Positions 36,015 through 42,299 are shown, counted from the stretch's first letter. The stretch is DNA of 51,142 nucleotides from Deltaproteobacteria bacterium (GCA_016934455.1 JAFGSX010000259.1:1-51142); one strand, 5' to 3'. Notes: generated by a model from the letters alone, not told the origin. A program made the numbers and translations.

Positions 36015-36043
36015 ATTATGCAATGCATACAATTATTAGTCAA
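36015..36043 (-). promoter_or_regulatory. Near-consensus sigma70 promoter TTGACT-17-CATAAT, with the palindrome TATGCA-t-TGCATA (36017-36029) in the spacer and -10 region
   Basis: Read from the minus strand, within the only strongly AT-rich patch of this region. The palindrome arms are perfect 6-mers. Confidence 0.5.
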
Positions 36044-36118: not shown

Positions 36119-37627
36119 TCACGGCACGATCACGATCGTCTCGTTGACGTCCAGCACGTTCCACAGCCGGTCGATGTGGGCGTTGTCGAGCGCCACGCAG
36201 CCCCAGGTCCAGTCGTAGTCGCCGGTGTCGTCGCCGCCGCCGTGCACCTCGATGTAGCTACCGAGTTCGGTGTCCTGCGGCGGCGCCGCGCAGCTCTGCT
36301 GTGCGCTCACGATCGCATCGTGCTGGCTCTGGTCGATCAGGCCGGCCTGCAGCCCGCGCGCGGCATCGGCCGCGTCCGGATAGCTGATCAAATACGCCTC
36401 GTAGTAGGACGAGACCCCCTGCGGTATCTTGGACGCCGCGTAGAACACGCCCTCGGGCGTCTTGTAGTCGCCCTCGCGCTCCTTGTCGCCGACCGGAGCG
36501 TAGGCGCTGAGGCCGACGCTGAAGTTGGCCACCAGGCTGCCGCAGTCGCACAGCGCCAGGTTGCGCGCGCTCTTGTGCACCACCGCGTAGTCGTCCGGCA
36601 CCAGGTCGCACGGCGACAGGCCAGCGGCCCAGGCCGCCGCGCAGTCGCCGGCGCCGACGCCCGGGTTCCACAGCGGGTGGTGCTCCTGGGCCGAGCCCGG
36701 CCAGCAGACGTCGAACTCCGGATCGCAGACGTAGCCTTCTCCGCTGCGGCAGTCGCCGGCGCCGCCGCAGTCCTCGAGGCAGGCGAAGATGCCGACGTCG
36801 AGCAGGTGAAAGCAGGTCGATCCGGTCGGGCAGCCGGCCAGGTCGCACATCTGCTTCGAGCAGTAACCGCCGGGCAGATCGAGGCAGGCCGAGTGGCCGC
36901 AGGCGGCGGGCGCGCCGCAGGCGGCTCCGATGTCGAAGGCGGGCGCGCTCTCGCCCGGCCACGCCTGGGTCGCCGACGGCAGGCAGACCGCCGCGATCCT
37001 CGACGGATCGCCGTAGCGCTGCCGCAGCACGCAGGTGTAACCGGGGCGGCAGCCGGTCGGCGACTTGTCGAAATGGCAGGTGGCGACACAGCGCGGATCG
37101 CCGCCGGCGTCGATGCAAAAAGACATCGTCTCGGCCGCGGCGATCGGCTGGTGGTCCGGGCACACCCAGGAGCTGCCTGGTTGCGTGCAGGACTGGGTAC
37201 ACAGGCCGCCCGAGAAGCCGGCGGTCTCGCAGATCGCGGTGCTGGTGTAGCCGTCGAGGCTGCATTCGCCCGCGCCGCTGCAGGCGCCGCCGATCCAGCC
37301 CGGGTTGAGCTCGACGCCCGGGTTGCCGGCGTCGGCGGGGGCGGATGCATCGACGGGATCCAGGCCGAGGTCGCGCGGGCCGCTGTCGACGGGCCGGGCG
37401 TCGCGGCCGACCGCGGTGTCGCGGCCGGTGGCGCGATCGCCGCCCCCGGCGTCGACGGCGCCCAGGTCGCCGCCGCCCAGATCGGCGCTCGCGGCGTCGA
37501 ACGCGGCATCGGGCAGGTCGACGCCGGCGTCCTCGTCCGCCGCCGGTGGCGCGTCGCAGGCCGCGACAGCCCACACCGCCAGCGCGGCGATCGGACCCAG
37601 CGCGCGCGATCTGCCTGCGAGCGGCAT
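36119..37627 (-). CDS. Cys-rich lipoprotein with a C-terminal L,D-transpeptidase-fold domain (YkuD/YafK-like)
   Basis: GAGG-N5-ATG at 37627. The signal is MPLAGRSRALGPIAALAVWAVAAC. Two Cys-rich modules follow (IGGACSGAGEC.. and IGAACGAPAAC..). The C-terminus reads ..GDKEREGDYKTPEGVFY..IEVHGGG..TWGCVALDNAHIDRLW. Confidence 0.8.
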   Translation of the reverse strand: MPLAGRSRALGPIAALAVWAVAACDAPPAADEDAGVDLPDAAFDAASADLGGGDLGAVDAGGGDRATGRDTAVGRDARPVDSGPRDLGLDPVDASAPADAGNPGVELNPGWIGGACSGAGECSLDGYTSTAICETAGFSGGLCTQSCTQPGSSWVCPDHQPIAAAETMSFCIDAGGDPRCVATCHFDKSPTGCRPGYTCVLRQRYGDPSRIAAVCLPSATQAWPGESAPAFDIGAACGAPAACGHSACLDLPGGYCSKQMCDLAGCPTGSTCFHLLDVGIFACLEDCGGAGDCRSGEGYVCDPEFDVCWPGSAQEHHPLWNPGVGAGDCAAAWAAGLSPCDLVPDDYAVVHKSARNLALCDCGSLVANFSVGLSAYAPVGDKEREGDYKTPEGVFYAASKIPQGVSSYYEAYLISYPDAADAARGLQAGLIDQSQHDAIVSAQQSCAAPPQDTELGSYIEVHGGGDDTGDYDWTWGCVALDNAHIDRLWNVLDVNETIVIVP

Positions 37628-37634
37628 CACCACC

Positions 37635-38264
37635 TCACTGCGACGCGCTGTCCGTCGTCGCCTGGCGCGCCTGCTCACCCTCGAGCGCGGCGCCGAGCAA
37701 CAGGCTGTCGAGCAGCCGCTTGGCGCTGTCGTCGAACTTGTTGCCGCCATCGAGGCGCGCGCGCACGGCGATCGCGAACAGGTAGGTGCCCGCATCGAGG
37801 TCGGCCAGAAGCTGGTCGGCCAGCACCATGCCCCCGGGCGGCGGACAGCTCCAGGTGATCGACGCCGCGGGCGCGGTCGGCACCGGCGCCGCGCAGGCCG
37901 GCGGCAACGCGTCGGCCGCGGCCGCTGCCAGAGCCGCCGCGCGGTCGTCGCGATCGAGCTCGCTGGCGATCCTGGCTGCCTCCCCCAGCGCGCCCAGCAC
38001 CTCCGGGCAGCTTGCGCCCAGGCCGGCGAGCGCCGGCCGAACGCGCCGGATCGGCGCGACGGACTCGACCGCGGGCAGCGCCGCCCTGAGCTGGTCGCCG
38101 CAGGTGGCGACACCGCCCTCGCCCGTCGGGTCGCCGCCGCCAGCGCTGCCGCCGCGGCCGCTCGCGGTCGTGGCGCAGCCGACGACGGACAGCCACGCGG
38201 CGAGCAGAGCGCTCGCCAGCGCTGCTGCGTTCACCGGCAACCGCCCTGTCGATCGTCCGTTCAT
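37635..38264 (-). CDS. Putative lipoprotein, function unknown
   Basis: A 209-aa ORF. LASALLAAWLSVVGC is a lipobox signal. The stop lies 7 nt before the next start. Confidence 0.6.
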   Translation of the reverse strand: MNGRSTGRLPVNAAALASALLAAWLSVVGCATTASGRGGSAGGGDPTGEGGVATCGDQLRAALPAVESVAPIRRVRPALAGLGASCPEVLGALGEAARIASELDRDDRAAALAAAAADALPPACAAPVPTAPAASITWSCPPPGGMVLADQLLADLDAGTYLFAIAVRARLDGGNKFDDSAKRLLDSLLLGAALEGEQARQATTDSASQ

Positions 38265-38291
38265 GATCGCGTCTTCGAGCCGCGAGCCCGC

Positions 38292-39827
38292 CTAGATCCA
38301 GTTGTTGGGAATCGTGCGCGGGTCCAGGTTCCACAGCCCGTTGAGCAACTGCAGCGTGCGCTGCGCGGCCGGGTCAGCGCTGCCGCTCTGATCCAGGTGG
38401 AGCCTGAAATTCTCGATCGCGCCGACCGCCTGCTGGCGCGACATGGTGCCAAAATCCGGCGGCGTCAGGCCGAGCGCCTGGTAGCCGGCCGCGATCTGCG
38501 ATCCGTACTCGCGCTGGAAGCGCGGCGCGATGTTGCTGGTGTAGAACAGCGTGCGGATGGTCTGGTCGCGGCGGCTCTCGAGCTCGCGCCGTTGCTCCCC
38601 GGTCACGGCCGAGCGCTGCAGCAGCGCCTGCACGTTGTTGTAGTACTCGCGCAACGGCCCGGTCTGCGAGTTCTCGACCACCCGCTCGCCGCTGAAGTAG
38701 GAGCGAAAGTTATAGGCGCCGTAGCTGACCGCGTCGCGCAGCTCGGACAGCGACTGGCTGCTCTGGTTGGCGTCACCCTCGGTCCAGGTGGCGATGTTCT
38801 CGGCCTTGCGGGTGCCCAGCGCCGTCAGCCGATCGACCGCGCCCGCGACGTTGCTACCGCTGCCGCGGGTTACCCGGTCCCAGGCCGCCTGGTGCGCGGT
38901 GGCGCCGCTTCCCGAGCCGGGCGCCGAGCCGCCGTAGGCCCAGATGGTGCGGACGTTGGGAAAGATCTCCCGGTACTTCTCGTTGTTGGCCTCGCCGCCC
39001 GAATAGCAGGCCGAGATGTTGAGATCCTCGACCGCGGCCGCGGCGCGCGGCATGGCATCGGCCAGCCCCTTGAGCGAGTCCCAGGTGAGCTGTCCGTTGC
39101 CGTCGCCCCACGGGCCGTCGCCCACGTTGTGGCCCGAGATGACCAGGCGCCCCGGGATGGTGCCGCCGCGCTCGGCCCGGGCCCAGACCTTGGCGATGCC
39201 GGCCAGCTCGTCGCGCGCGCCCTCGCCGCCGTTGCCGATCGCGTCCGCCACCCTGCCCGCCTGGTCGGCCGGCAACCCGAGCGTGCCGACAAAACCAGCG
39301 CGGCCCTCCGGTGTCTTGAGATCGTAGCTGCGGCCGCCGACCGCGATCTGGTCCTGGCCGAGGCGCGAATCGGTCACCGCCGTCACGCTGTTGCCGCGGC
39401 CGCGGAGCTGCGCGATCTCGTGCGGCGCGCCGGCGCTCTCCCGGGTCGGGTTGTTCATGCCGACGAACAGGATATCGTCCCGGTTGGATGTCCGCTGCGG
39501 CTGGGGCGCGCCGCCCTGCAGCTCGCGGTTCTGCATCAGCAGCCCGAGCGCGTTGACCGCCTTGCCGGCCTGGGTCGGCTGACCAGCGCGATCGGTCGCC
39601 ACCAGCGAATGGCGCGAGCCGTCGCGGTCGAAGTCGTCGGCCACGTTGAACGCCTCGTCGGCGTCGATCTTGCCGTCGCCGTTGCGGTCCGCCCGCTCGA
39701 GCTGTTGCACGGTCATGCCGCCCTGCTCGAGCTGGGTTCTGGCCGGCTGGTCTTGCCTTAGCTTCTGCAGATCGATGGACTGGCCTCGATGCTGGGTCGT
39801 GAACGTCGGGCGGTCGATCTTGGCCAT
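38292..39827 (-). CDS. EF-hand-containing protein with a caspase/CHAT-like His...Cys dyad context; no signal peptide
   Basis: AGGAG-N7-ATG at 39827 (MAKIDRP..). The EF-hand loop is DRNGDGKIDADE (aa 47-58). GRLVISGHNVG has His233 (39129-39131). EDLNISACYSGG has Cys274 (39006-39008). Confidence 0.7.
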   Translation of the reverse strand: MAKIDRPTFTTQHRGQSIDLQKLRQDQPARTQLEQGGMTVQQLERADRNGDGKIDADEAFNVADDFDRDGSRHSLVATDRAGQPTQAGKAVNALGLLMQNRELQGGAPQPQRTSNRDDILFVGMNNPTRESAGAPHEIAQLRGRGNSVTAVTDSRLGQDQIAVGGRSYDLKTPEGRAGFVGTLGLPADQAGRVADAIGNGGEGARDELAGIAKVWARAERGGTIPGRLVISGHNVGDGPWGDGNGQLTWDSLKGLADAMPRAAAAVEDLNISACYSGGEANNEKYREIFPNVRTIWAYGGSAPGSGSGATAHQAAWDRVTRGSGSNVAGAVDRLTALGTRKAENIATWTEGDANQSSQSLSELRDAVSYGAYNFRSYFSGERVVENSQTGPLREYYNNVQALLQRSAVTGEQRRELESRRDQTIRTLFYTSNIAPRFQREYGSQIAAGYQALGLTPPDFGTMSRQQAVGAIENFRLHLDQSGSADPAAQRTLQLLNGLWNLDPRTIPNNWI

Positions 39828-39841
39828 CGTCATTCTCCTGG

Positions 39842-39993: not shown

Positions 39994-40968
39994 TTACAGC
40001 TTGCCCTCTTTGTGTTGCTGGCCAAGCTTTTTCAGCATGTCCTTGGTCATAGTCGCAAGGTCGTACGACGGCTTCCAGCCCCATTCCTCGCGCGCTGCAC
40101 TGTCGTCCAGGGAGCGCGGCCACGAATCGGCGATGGCCTGCCTGAAGTCCGGCTCATAGCTGCAGGTGAATGTGGGAATGTTCTTCTTGATCTCCGCCGC
40201 TAGTTCTCCCGCGCTGAAGCTCATGGCGCCGACATTGAAGTCCGAATGATGCTTGAGTCTCTCGAACGGCGCTTCCATCAGATCCATGGTCGCCTTGAGG
40301 CAGTCGGGCATGTACATCATGGGCAGCCGGGTGTCCTCGCGCACGAAACAGGTGTATTTGCCGTGCTTCACTGCATCGTAGAAAATGGCAACCGCATAGT
40401 CGGTCGTGCCGCCGCCCGGCAAGGTCTCGGAGCTGATAATGCCGGGGTAGCGAAGACCTCTGACGTCCAACCCGTACTTGCGCACATAATAGTCGCACAG
40501 AAGCTCACCGCACACCTTGGTCACACCGTACATAGTCGTTGGTTTCAAGACTGTCTCGTTGGGCGTGTTCTCCAGCGGGCAGCCCGGACCGAATACCGCG
40601 ATCGACGATGGAATAATGACCTGGGTCAGCTTTCGATCTCTGGCGATGTCGAGAACGGTCCGCATCCCGTTCATATTCACGTCCCAGGCGAGCTCCGGGT
40701 TCTTCTCTCCCACTGCCGAGAGAATGGCAGCCATGTGCACGATCGTGTCGATATCGTGTTTCTCGACCACCTCTTCGACCGCTGCCCGGTTTGTGACATT
40801 GATAAAATAGAAAGGGCCTGAATCGCGCAGGGCGGGGCTGGGTTCGGTCTTGCGGCCAGTGGCCACCACGTTGTCATTGCCGTATCTCTCGCGCAGGGCC
40901 ATGGTAAGCTCGGAGCCGATTTGGCCGACCGATCCAGTCACCAGGATTTTCGTTATCTTCTTGTTCAC
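39994..40968 (-). CDS. tdh: L-threonine 3-dehydrogenase, SDR/epimerase-type
   Basis: The GTG start gives VNKKITKILVTGSVGQIGSEL (Rossmann GxxGxxG). ..YGVTKVCGELL.. carries YxxxK. The size is about 324 aa. It is adjacent to kbl. Confidence 0.85.
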   Translation of the reverse strand: MNKKITKILVTGSVGQIGSELTMALRERYGNDNVVATGRKTEPSPALRDSGPFYFINVTNRAAVEEVVEKHDIDTIVHMAAILSAVGEKNPELAWDVNMNGMRTVLDIARDRKLTQVIIPSSIAVFGPGCPLENTPNETVLKPTTMYGVTKVCGELLCDYYVRKYGLDVRGLRYPGIISSETLPGGGTTDYAVAIFYDAVKHGKYTCFVREDTRLPMMYMPDCLKATMDLMEAPFERLKHHSDFNVGAMSFSAGELAAEIKKNIPTFTCSYEPDFRQAIADSWPRSLDDSAAREEWGWKPSYDLATMTKDMLKKLGQQHKEGKL

Positions 40969-41111
40969 ACGGCGCCCCTTCTTTGATTCGCGGCCTCGAG
41001 CAGCCCGAATTTTTTGGCAAAGTACACCTTGCCCGAGCCAGCGGCAACTGTTAGATTCCGCCGCCAAGAAACGACGAGAAGCCCGTCTTGAAGGCTTTGG
41101 GAGGCGTTTTC

Positions 41112-42299
41112 ATGTTCGACAGTTACCGCAGCGAAATTCAAAAAGAGCTGGACGGCATACGAGAGGCCGGCACCTACAAAGTTGAACGTGTCATCCAGTC
41201 CAAGCAAAGCGCGGCCATCAAGGTACCGGGCCAGGAGGTGATCAACTTTTGCGCCAATAACTATCTGGGCCTGGCCGACAATCCAGAGATCATCCAGGCG
41301 GCGAAGAAAGCCCTGGACGAGCGCGGTTTTGGAATGGCCTCGGTCCGCTTCATCTGCGGCACGCTCGATCTTCACAAGGAGCTGGAAAAGACCATCAGCG
41401 CGTTCAACGGCACCGACGACACGATCCTCTACTCGTCCTGCTTCGACGCCAACACCGGTCTGTTCGAGACCGTCCTCGGCGAGGGCGACGCCATCATCTC
41501 GGATCAGTTGAACCACGCTTCGGTCATCGACGGTGTCAGACTCTGCAAGGCCGAGCGATTCAAGTACGCGAACTCGGATATGAACGAGCTCGAAGAGATC
41601 TTGAAAAAGACCCAGAAGCATCGCCGGCGCCTGATCGCCACCGACGGCGTCTTCTCCATGGACGGATATCTGGTCAAGCTCGACAAGATCTGCCCGCTGG
41701 CCGAAAAATACAATGCGATGGTCATGGTGGACGACTCGCACGCCACCGGCTACATCGGCAAGACCGGCCGCGGCACGCCGGAGCATTGCGGCGTTCAAGG
41801 GCGGGTGGATGTCATCACCTCAACGCTGGGCAAGGCGCTCGGCGGCGCTTCCGGCGGCTATACGACCGGCCGCAAAGAGATCATCGACCTGCTGCGCCAG
41901 CGGTCCCGGCCGTACCTCTTCTCGAACACGCTGACGCCGTCGCTGGCGGCCGCTGCTACCAAGACCTTCGAGATTCTCTCCAAGAGCACTGCCCTGCGCG
42001 ACAAGCTCATGGACAACACCGCCTACTTCAGAAACAAGCTCGAGAAGCTGGGCTTCGACGTCCTCAAGGGGGAGACCGCGATCGTTCCGGTCATGCTCTA
42101 CGACGCCAAGCTGGCCACCGATTTCGCGAACGAGATGCTCAAAGAAGGCATCTATGTGATCGGTTTTTCCTATCCCGTGGTGCCCAAGGACAAGGCGCGA
42201 ATCCGGACTCAGATCTCGGCCGCCCACGACAAACACCACCTCGACCGGGCGGTCGACGCCTTCGCCAAGGTCGGCAAGAAGATGGGTGTGCTGAAGTGA
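41112..42299 (+). CDS. kbl: 2-amino-3-ketobutyrate CoA ligase (glycine C-acetyltransferase)
   Basis: GGGAGG-N8-[26 protein letters not shown].. Family segments: [26 protein letters not shown], and STLGKALGG (PLP Lys). Confidence 0.9.

Follow-up and report, generated by a model that had tools for sequence, protein, structure and literature searches.

The three-gene cassette described here is carried, entirely on the minus strand, by an uncultured myxobacterium, and the product of its first gene belongs to a large family, as yet unnamed, in which a His/Cys pair is conserved and the predicted fold is caspase-like. As wall-binding modules are attached to proteins of this family and a dedicated lipoprotein partner is exported, the family probably represents a novel type of enzyme or weapon aimed at the cell wall, rather than a cytoplasmic calcium sensor. 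We suggest, with a probability of about one half, that the cassette as a whole is envelope-directed, with gene 1 encoding a clan CD-like wall enzyme, gene 2 an immunity or inhibitor lipoprotein, and gene 3 a peptidoglycan-editing helper.

Within the window (the whole 51,142-nt stretch of DNA analysed), gene 1 (38292..39827, minus strand, as for all features below) encodes a signal-less protein of 511 aa with an EF-hand-pair head, a caspase-fold core and a helical tail. Gene 2 (37635..38264) encodes a 209-aa lipoprotein, the dedicated partner of gene 1 and a candidate immunity or inhibitor protein, and gene 3 (36119..37627) encodes a lipoprotein of 502 aa in which two Cys-rich modules precede a YkuD domain. 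Re-reading of the minus strand reproduced this arrangement, with the intergenic gaps of 27 nt and 7 nt reported in a previous sequence-only reading of this DNA. Gene 1 starts at the ATG at 39827, with a Shine-Dalgarno sequence (AGGAGA, 39834..39839) 6 nt ahead of it, and its homologues open with M-[ST]-K-I at the equivalent position. The N-terminus shows no hydrophobic stretch, in agreement with the absence of a signal peptide noted in that reading, the overall account of which is partly supported by our results.

Putative catalytic core of gene 1

The AlphaFold models of gene 1 were confident (pLDDT 92.7 and 94.9) and predicted an alpha/beta core with a clan-CD-like fold at residues 113–356 (38760..39491; AlphaFold2 pLDDT 94.9), followed by an all-helical C-terminal domain at residues 357–511 (38295..38759; helices within 360–500), which is conserved across the family and ends in the motif ...IPxxW[IVL]. 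The top Foldseek matches of the core were the SAVED-CHAT protein 8tl0 and the C11 peptidase 6n9j (E ~2e-4, TMq 0.48, probability 1.0), with legumain/AEP, caspase-8, caspase-7, CED-3 and GPI8 among the further matches; a search with the whole protein also pointed to clan CD. The clan CD matches had probabilities of 0.9–1.0, TMq values of 0.40–0.48 and RMSD values of 6–9 Å, and the matches also included proteins with generic alpha/beta folds, pyridoxal kinases among them. A TM value of ~0.48 makes a fold shared with clan CD a borderline prediction of the model. The clan-CD-like character proposed from the sequence is supported by the nature of the best structural matches, namely CHAT, C11, legumain and caspases.

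Both of the segments singled out in the sequence-only reading, RLVISGHN (His233) and DLNISACYSGG (Cys274), were present and 41 residues apart. DSSP analysis of the model placed the candidate catalytic His233 (codon 39129..39131) directly after the strand at residues 224–231, and the candidate nucleophile Cys274 (codon 39006..39008) directly after the strand at residues 268–272; the proposed placement of the two residues at strand ends thus held in the model, in which the two strands are consecutive, and both residues are conserved family-wide. In a sample of 103 diverse gene-1 homologues (28–45% identity to gene 1), Cys274 was conserved in all 103 sequences and His233 in 101, together with R227 (103), E137 (102) and W316 (103), so the conservation expected of a catalytic pair was found, and the pair exceeds what would be expected by chance. 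The dyad was retained even in the 26%-identical C-terminal domain of a set of 1,238-aa proteins.

Gene 1 had no sequence match in Pfam (E <= 1), NCBIfam or PADLOC, and sequence and profile searches of the PDB yielded no match either; none of the Pfam, NCBIfam and PDB searches linked it by sequence to a clan CD family. The alignment of the gene 1 profile with a 15-sequence CHAT alignment by hhalign gave a probability of 11.8%, with the Cys aligned and the His not. On the basis of the modelled fold, gene 1 is predicted to be a cysteine peptidase or transpeptidase-type enzyme, with His233 and Cys274 as its putative catalytic dyad.

Head module and lipoprotein partners

The N-terminal part of gene 1 (residues 1–104; 39516..39827) is an EF-hand-pair, dockerin-like module (alignment A2). 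The EF-hand loop proposed previously, DRNGDGKIDADE, was found at residues 47–58 (39654..39689); it fits the pattern D-x-[DNS]-x-[DNS]-G-x-[ILV]-x-x-x-E and is flanked by helices at residues 40–46 and 56–64. A second Ca-loop-like segment, DDFDRDGSRHSL, follows at residues 64–75 (39603..39638). In the module alignment, D47 and G52 of the first loop and D64 and D67 of the second are invariant, G70 is nearly so, and D51 also belongs to this set of invariant or nearly invariant residues. The loop falls below the Pfam gathering score (EF-hand_5: 18.7–21.5 bits, 18.7 for gene 1, against a cut-off of 25.9), as does the match of the module to Dockerin_1 (12.9–16.9 bits, cut-off 22.9), and the same weak EF-hand match was obtained from 17 of the 18 members of the module alignment.

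This head is present in 61 of the 301 Myxococcota genomes and nearly always starts at residues 1–4. It is fused to signal-less M23, M74, BTLCP, CHAP/NlpC-like, lysozyme-like and glucosaminidase-like domains, so that the company it keeps consists almost wholly of peptidoglycan hydrolases; most of the other proteins bearing it have no obvious exported partner encoded downstream. The module occurs in tandem in places, with three copies in one protein (P0218), as would be expected of a binding module more than of a secretion signal. The EF-hand pair is probably an interchangeable, putatively Ca2+-binding head marking a set of signal-less Myxococcota peptidoglycan hydrolases, which it would either dock at the wall or feed into a route of export or delivery.

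Gene 2 carries the lipobox LSVVGC, as read from the sequence against the pattern [LVI][ASTVI][GAS]C, and matched no known family in Pfam or NCBIfam. All 12 of its homologues in other genomes (E <= 1e-6, four families) follow a gene-1 homologue in the same orientation at a distance of 0–300 nt, as does one weak homologue, and an iterative search covering 51 loci returned the same pattern. These homologues have lipoboxes or signal peptides, and the lipoboxes of the homologues of genes 2 and 3 read LAAC, LTAC, ATGC and LFAC. Gene 2 is absent beside most gene-1 homologues, for example those of the LysM type in Archangium and Myxococcaceae. The layout is that of an effector-immunity pair, with an adjacent, same-strand, exported partner found only with the enzyme gene, and an enzyme that is itself signal-less. 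A position directly downstream of gene-1 homologues is what would be expected of a gene for immunity or inhibition, and the gene 2 product is most likely such a protein, a dedicated exported partner that would shield the producer's own periplasm from gene 1.

In gene 3, the lipobox reads AVAAC and is followed by two modules with 12 Cys each, at about residues 110–215 (36983..37300) and 230–310 (36698..36940), which recur in other lipoproteins adjoining EF-hand-head proteins. The C-terminal YkuD L,D-peptidase domain (residues 346–500; 36128..36592) was recognized by Pfam (PF03734, 53.3 bits, cut-off 23.4), and both the two Cys-rich modules and the L,D-transpeptidase domain described earlier were present. 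Its His462 and Cys477, in the context ...EVHGGG...TWGCVALDN, are both kept in orthologues. The nearest relatives in the PDB were the YkuD protein 8ikr and Pgp2 (6xj6). The canonical (S/T)xGC[IV]R[ML] motif is not found in gene 3, in which Ala replaces Arg, and the Cys context resembles that of the L,D-carboxypeptidase Pgp2 (TRGCIALFN). Assignment to the YafK/DpaA (LdtF) amidase equivalog NF040599 was rejected (score 26.1 bits, cut-off 365, with a match confined to residues 378–427). The YafK-type affiliation suggested from the sequence thus stands in that the GCVAL context is like that of the hydrolytic Pgp2/YafK-like subgroup and unlike GC[IV]R[ML], but not in the sense of a YafK/DpaA equivalog, and gene 3 is best described, from its motifs, as a putative Pgp2/YafK-like YkuD lipoprotein leaning towards hydrolysis.

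The order of the three genes is kept in the sister genus; in another genome (G039), the gene 3 homologue is adjacent to and convergent with the gene-1 homologue, and two genomes of another family have it immediately upstream of the genes for the 1,238-aa gene-1-like proteins. Gene 3 is therefore tied in three distinct ways to domains of the gene-1 type, and its orthologues are usually on contigs other than that of gene 1. Synteny in relatives thus holds fully for genes 1 and 2, and partly for gene 3. The gene 3 product, predicted to be periplasmic, most likely edits or repairs the peptidoglycan of the producer, which would then tolerate or cooperate with the activity of gene 1.

Site of action and alternative explanations

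The gene-1 family comprises ~1,100 clusters with LysM, PG_binding_1, SH3_3 or eCIS_core heads, and some homologues have three PG_binding_1 domains. Peptidoglycan hydrolases also bear the EF-hand head, and the lipoprotein that is its obligate partner is exported, so the envelope is the indicated site of action of gene 1, and gene 1 is most likely a delivered cell-envelope cysteine peptidase. It would act at the cell wall rather than in the cytoplasm, with peptidoglycan stem peptides or wall-tethered proteins as candidate substrates, and the helical domain at its C-terminus may serve as a cap or regulator of the active site, the role that the C-terminal domain has in prolegumain. No delivery route emerged from the searches: neither a T6SS sheath (VipB) nor FHIPEP was found in the 82%-complete genome, no T6SS, T4SS or eCIS delivery genes were found in the window, and a T6SS sheath was present in one of five relatives rich in the head module.

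Gene 1 could alternatively be a housekeeping autolysin or remodelling enzyme whose target is the wall of the producer itself as it grows, divides or sporulates, with gene 2 as its lipoprotein regulator or activator instead of an immunity protein and gene 3 as a co-working L,D-peptidase. All three products are envelope-directed or wall-associated, the YkuD partner recurs, gene 2 is missing beside many homologues, and the genome yielded no T6SS or eCIS, all of which would be consistent with such a role. However, gene 1 and ~90% of its relatives lack a signal peptide, the distribution of the family is patchy (one to three copies in each of 45 genomes out of 301), every genome offers a different neighbourhood for the gene-1 homologue, and some members carry the eCIS_core cargo domain. 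Taken together, these observations are more in keeping with accessory weaponry than with a housekeeping function, and we consider the autolysin explanation rather unlikely.

It is also conceivable that the caspase-like gene 1 has a chemistry other than peptidoglycan hydrolysis. It would then be a transamidase or ligase, like the clan CD members GPI8 and butelase, or would cleave envelope proteins, for instance the tethers between the outer membrane and the wall. GPI transamidase and asparaginyl ligases are among its structural matches, wall-binding heads indicate location only and not substrate, and no characterised clan CD enzyme (MEROPS clan CD) is known to cleave peptidoglycan. The almost exclusive association of the head module with peptidoglycan hydrolases argues against this explanation, which overlaps with that of a delivered envelope peptidase and which, taken separately, we regard as doubtful.

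The sequence-only reading had pointed to a cytoplasmic, Ca2+-switched regulatory protease that would control, from within the cell, how peptidoglycan or lipoproteins are remodelled. The lack of a signal peptide, the canonical-looking EF-hand loop and the caspase-like fold are compatible with this role. However, homologues swap the EF-hand head for LysM, PG_binding_1 or SH3_3, the same head is found on wall hydrolases of the M23, M74 and lysozyme-like types, Sec signals or membrane anchors occur in ~8 of the 103 homologues, and the obligate partner is exported, so this part of the earlier account was not upheld and now appears improbable.

A CHAT-type anti-phage defence protease or a prophage endolysin is the least probable explanation, despite the SAVED-CHAT (CRISPR-associated protease) top match, a HEPN/MNT pair adjoining the cassette and an endolysin-like combination of wall-binding head and catalytic domain, since there was no match in PADLOC or in 50,697 phage records, no sensor domain in the protein and no phage genes around the cassette, and the conserved partner is a lipoprotein rather than a holin or nuclease.

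Comparison with known systems

The clan CD peptidases (C11 6n9j, CHAT 8tl0, C13 legumain/AEP/GPI8 and C14 caspases) have an alpha/beta sandwich core, as modelled for gene 1, and in both cases the His comes before the Cys, with a hydrophobic strand leading up to either residue. The spacing of 41 residues in gene 1 may be compared with that of legumain, which is ~41 residues, and the spacing in caspases is similar. The family motif hhhSAC-x-(S/T)G resembles the LSAC-x-TG of CHAT proteins, and prolegumain also has a helical domain C-terminal to the core. However, gene 1 differs from clan CD in the lack of any sequence or profile match, in TM-scores that reach ~0.48 at most, and in a His that is preceded by Gly (SGH) rather than followed by it (HG). 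The gene-1 family is further distinguished by its fused wall-binding modules and its lipoprotein partner, a combination that is not known for clan CD.

Genes 1 and 2 resemble the T6SS pairs Tae/Tai and Tge/Tgi and the Xanthomonas T4SS pair X-Tfe/X-Tfi, in which a signal-less wall enzyme is followed by an exported partner, often a lipoprotein, and which have a similarly patchy distribution and varying neighbourhoods. In contrast to the T6SS pairs, no T6SS sheath was found in the carrier genome or in four of five relatives, and gene 1 lacks the VgrG, PAAR and XVIPCD-type delivery domains of T6SS and T4SS effectors. The Tae effectors are papain/NlpC-like, whereas gene 1 has a different catalytic fold, and many gene-1 homologues, unlike effector-immunity pairs, have no partner gene beside them.

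The head of gene 1 recalls the effector marker or loading domains MIX, FIX and eCIS_core/DUF4157, which are also ~100 aa long, located at the extreme N-terminus and common to unrelated toxic or lytic C-terminal domains; eCIS_core is indeed interchangeable with the EF-hand head within the gene-1 family. The two Ca-loop-plus-helix repeats are shared with Ca2+-dependent dockerins, the Dockerin_1 matches being weak. The module differs from all of these in being absent from Pfam and in that no cognate secretion system or cohesin-like partner was found for it.

Finally, gene 3 scores above the YkuD cut-off of Pfam and retains both the His and the Cys of the YkuD-fold set, which includes L,D-transpeptidases, Pgp2/Csd6, the YafK/DpaA amidase and the T6SS effector Tlde1. 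Its GDYKTPEG segment and GC[IV]AL context match those of 8ikr, Pgp2 and the YafK model region. It differs from this set in the replacement of the Arg of GC[IV]R[ML] with Ala, and in its lipoprotein anchor and two 12-Cys modules, which are absent from all of these proteins.

Layout of the cassette

Genes 1 (38292–39827, 511 aa), 2 (37635–38264, 209 aa) and 3 (36119–37627, 502 aa) follow one another in tandem on the minus strand, and the three-gene operon layout described by the sequence-only reading, with intergenic gaps of 27 and 7 nt, was reproduced from the gene coordinates. The start of gene 1 at 39827 is supported by an AGGAGA sequence located 6 nt upstream and by homologues, which open with M-[ST]-K-I at the same site. 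The N-terminus of gene 1 contains no hydrophobic segment, consistent with the earlier statement that it has no signal peptide, and genes 2 and 3 carry lipoprotein signals (LSVVGC and VAAC, respectively). The only terminator-like site found on the minus strand lies within gene 3 (36415–36396) and is taken to be a chance match. The promoter scan of the region revealed no strong sigma-70-like site upstream of gene 1; the sole strong site (TTGACT-17-CATAAT, 36015–36043, minus strand) is found just below gene 3, ahead of an MNT/HEPN pair. Immediately upstream of gene 1, the tdh/kbl pair (40001–42000) has a GC content of 58.6%, versus about 70% elsewhere in the window.

Fold, family and N-terminal heads of gene 1

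No family match was obtained for genes 1 and 2 in Pfam, NCBIfam or PADLOC, sub-threshold EF-hand matches in gene 1 being the sole exception, and sequence and profile searches of gene 1 against the PDB returned chance matches only; gene 1 thus remains without a named family, as previously noted. The EF-hand loop DRNGDGKIDADE (residues 47–58) and the two members of the candidate dyad, His233 (in RLVISGHN) and Cys274 (in DLNISACYSGG), were all present. The AlphaFold2 model of gene 1, with 39 homologues as input (pLDDT 92.7), consists of a helical head with an EF-hand pair (residues 1–104), an alpha/beta domain (residues ~113–356) and an all-helical tail (residues 357–511), and a separate model of the alpha/beta core alone reached a pLDDT of 94.9. 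In Foldseek searches of the PDB, the top matches of the core were the CHAT protease of the SAVED-CHAT filament (8tl0) and a Bacteroides C11 peptidase (6n9j), each with an E of ~2e-4, a probability of 1.0 and a TMq of 0.48, followed by asparaginyl endopeptidase/legumain, caspase-8, caspase-7, CED-3 and GPI8, with borderline TM-scores and generic alpha/beta proteins (pyridoxal kinases) intermixed. The whole model matched C11 and prolegumains, and all matches with a probability of at least 0.9 belonged to clan CD. In the model, His233 follows strand 224–231 and Cys274 follows strand 268–272, an order that corresponds to the clan CD arrangement. An hhalign comparison of the core with a CHAT alignment built from relatives was not significant (probability 11.8%), the cysteine columns being aligned and the histidine columns not. 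The earlier description of gene 1 as clan-CD-like is therefore upheld by its best structural matches and strand order and not by any sequence or profile match, the TMq being borderline. We conclude that gene 1 probably works like a clan CD enzyme, without assigning it to a named family.

The profile search against 1.84 billion representatives identified 1,139 clusters at E ≤ 1e-3, of which 448 reached E ≤ 1e-30, and the unit conserved across this family corresponds to residues ~113–511. Among 103 diverse representatives (28–45% identical to gene 1), Cys274, Arg227 and Trp316 were kept in all, Glu137 in 102 and His233 in 101, with a glutamate in the other two, so the dyad withstood the conservation check. 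It was also retained in the 26%-identical C-terminal domain of proteins of 1,238 and 1,246 aa (LSGHSGG, LLNCYN), the 1,238-aa protein having no match in a Pfam scan. The family is found mainly in Myxococcota (Archangium, Myxococcaceae, Labilithrix, Polyangiaceae), in 45 of the 301 sampled genomes of this phylum, with outliers in Planctomycetota, Saprospiraceae and a few other MAGs; the public annotation of all the proteins involved is "hypothetical" or names a binding domain only. The N-terminal heads vary across the family and include the EF-hand module, LysM, three PG_binding_1 domains, SH3_3 and the eCIS_core (DUF4157) cargo domain, and a clear Sec signal peptide or membrane anchor was present in about 8 of the 103 representatives and in none of the rest. 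These variable heads, together with the Sec signals and anchors, constitute evidence against the cytoplasmic role given to gene 1 by the sequence-only reading, and it can be argued from these features that the cell wall is the site of action of the family. In two distant genomes, genes for VanZ-like small membrane proteins were observed two genes downstream of gene-1 homologues, one annotated as VanZ by Pfam (L005:7976–8332) and the other resembling VanZ by eye, with no Pfam match (L001:8224–8748).

A homologue search with residues 1–108 alone returned four proteins (short-word index) and was replaced by a profile search of the genomes with the head module (residues 1–104), which was detected in 61 of the 301 Myxococcota genomes and reaches seven copies in a single genome at most. 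The module nearly always starts at residue 1–4, on proteins without a Sec signal, and is followed mostly by wall hydrolases, the partners being Peptidase_M23 with two PG_binding_1 domains, Peptidase_M74 with PG_binding_1, BTLCP/transglutaminase-like domains, two kinds of NlpC/CHAP-like Cys/His domain, lysozyme-like and glucosaminidase-like domains and, in Myxococcaceae, a PG_binding_1 and amidase-like protein. One metagenomic protein has three tandem head modules followed by a CHAP-like domain. Weak matches to EF-hand (17 of 18 head-module sequences) and dockerin (six) were all below the cut-offs. The extreme N-terminal position would suit a loading or secretion tag, and the tandem copies and the interchange with LysM and SH3 would fit a module that binds or docks in a Ca2+-dependent manner. 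In the 301-genome sample, the two large Myxococcaceae genera gave no match to the head module; our guess is that these include Myxococcus and that Myxococcus xanthus lacks the module, which makes a connection to that experimental system doubtful.

The source genome encodes three head-module proteins, namely gene 1, G000:C101 and G000:C323. The C101 protein (L052:4329–5507, minus strand, 392 aa) has an unfamiliar Cys/His C-terminal domain, and its gene overlaps by 4 nt with the next gene downstream, which encodes a protein of ~1,057 aa (L052:1159–4332) with caspase-like motifs (ICYFGHAGYG ... LVLLAQCWGEGN) and no match in a Pfam scan. An exported partner gene was not regularly found after other EF-hand-head proteins, most of which were without a clear one (the short flanks limit this check), and the idea of an immunity gene behind every such protein was not consistently borne out.

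The partner lipoproteins

In the 301 genomes, 12 homologues of gene 2 were found at E ≤ 1e-6 outside the source genome, in four families, and each of the 12 follows a gene-1 homologue of its own strand at a distance of 0–300 nt; a weaker thirteenth homologue occupied the same position. Direct BLAST of genes 2 and 3 against the genes downstream of distant homologues gave weak matches, so iterative and genome-wide searches were needed, and the iterative search of 51 fetched loci yielded eight gene-2 homologues, again all downstream of a gene-1 homologue. These homologues have lipoboxes or signal peptides, and no orphan copies were seen in the 301 genomes or the 51 loci. Gene 2 is absent from the majority of gene-1 homologue loci, those of the LysM type among them. 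On the basis of this gene neighborhood, gene 2 appears to be a dedicated partner of gene 1.

Gene 3 was confirmed to contain two Cys-rich modules, each with 12 cysteines, as well as a C-terminal YkuD domain (residues 346–500, 53.3 bits in Pfam) with His462 and Cys477. The cysteine context, TWGCVAL, lacks the arginine of canonical L,D-transpeptidases and resembles TRGCIAL of the L,D-carboxypeptidase Pgp2. The proposed YafK type was therefore borne out in the GCVAL context and not in the profile comparison, since the YafK/DpaA model matched residues 378–427 only and scored 26 bits, the cut-off being 365. Full-length orthologues were found in about 17 of the 301 genomes. In the sister genus, the order of genes 1, 2 and 3 is kept (L050:5441–10157), the gene-1 member being a paralogue, and a fourth gene encodes a further EF-hand-head protein, which carries PG_binding_1 together with an endopeptidase domain similar to Peptidase_M74; the place of this gene is occupied in the window by the HEPN/MNT pair. 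Gene 3 adjoins a gene-1 homologue convergently in a second genome (G039) and lies directly upstream of the 1,238-aa gene-1-like protein in two others (G037 and G110). Elsewhere, it is on contigs other than that of gene 1; the gene-1 core is present in 13 of the 17 gene-3 genomes, but these genomes are related, and their co-presence is therefore no statistical test. Synteny between genes 1 and 3 is thus found in these three forms and not beyond them, and the linkage is loose but repeated.

Cys-rich modules of the gene 3 type also occur in lipoproteins that adjoin EF-hand-head proteins and have a different Cys/His C-terminal domain. The members of this family in the source genome (L054:3297–4949) and the sister genus (L055:1974–3674) contain both 12-Cys modules, with an unnamed Cys/His end (GGGDC.CTGH ... 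SGHAV.FVGW) replacing YkuD, and in the sister genus one such lipoprotein is encoded directly downstream of an EF-hand-head protein. No match to these lipoproteins was obtained in a Pfam scan.

A candidate wall-directed enzyme and its partners

We propose, with a probability of about 0.5, that gene 1 is a delivered Cys-dependent peptidase or transpeptidase that would reach the periplasm of other cells or siblings and target peptidoglycan stems or wall-tethered proteins there, and that, in the producer, gene 1 would be blocked by gene 2 and the stem peptides would be trimmed or re-linked by gene 3; within this mechanism, we infer the catalysis, substrate, immunity and export route. More tentatively, the head module may be the tag by which an arsenal of signal-less wall enzymes of non-model Myxococcota is loaded onto, or docked at, a delivery route not described so far, with gene 1 as the first bacterial-wall enzyme with a clan CD fold, gene 2 as an immunity lipoprotein and the YkuD lipoprotein as a second, peptidoglycan-editing line of self-protection. 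Delivery by a T6SS is unsupported, as searches for the VipB sheath detected it neither in the source genome (82% complete) nor in four of five relatives rich in the head module. FHIPEP, the SctV/FlhA-type export gate, was not found in the same 82%-complete genome, and is present in 268 of the 301 sampled genomes, commonly in two to three copies; T3SS co-occurrence therefore cannot discriminate.

The alternative that survives best, although we consider it unlikely, is that gene 1 is an autolysin acting on the producer itself and regulated by a lipoprotein. It is somewhat less probable that gene 1 catalyses a different clan CD reaction, for example transamidation or the cleavage of envelope proteins. 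The cytoplasmic Ca2+ switch of the sequence-only reading is improbable, given the LysM, PG_binding_1, SH3_3 and eCIS_core heads and the Sec signals and anchors of the family. A role in phage defence or a prophage endolysin origin is very improbable, as PADLOC and a tblastn search of 50,697 phage records gave no match.

None of the libraries searched has a name for the gene 1 family, the head module or gene 2, and no description of them was found in the literature. To our knowledge, the folds described so far for wall-directed enzymes and interbacterial effectors are papain/NlpC, LAS/M23, lysozyme, amidase and YkuD. A caspase-fold family with peptidoglycan-binding modules and a lipoprotein partner would give cell-wall biology a new catalytic scaffold, and would also form a new branch of clan CD. 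As a lead only, the shared EF-hand head would be a sequence marker with which lytic enzymes of predatory Myxococcota could be searched for in a simple way; the effectors of myxobacterial contact-dependent killing were still hypothetical in a 2025 review (PMC12428579). The cassette differs from effector-immunity pairs in that gene 2 is missing beside most gene-1 homologues. It nevertheless appears to follow the same logic as the pairs that act in the periplasm, in which a signal-less wall-directed enzyme, here gene 1, precedes an exported partner that occurs in no other setting, here gene 2.
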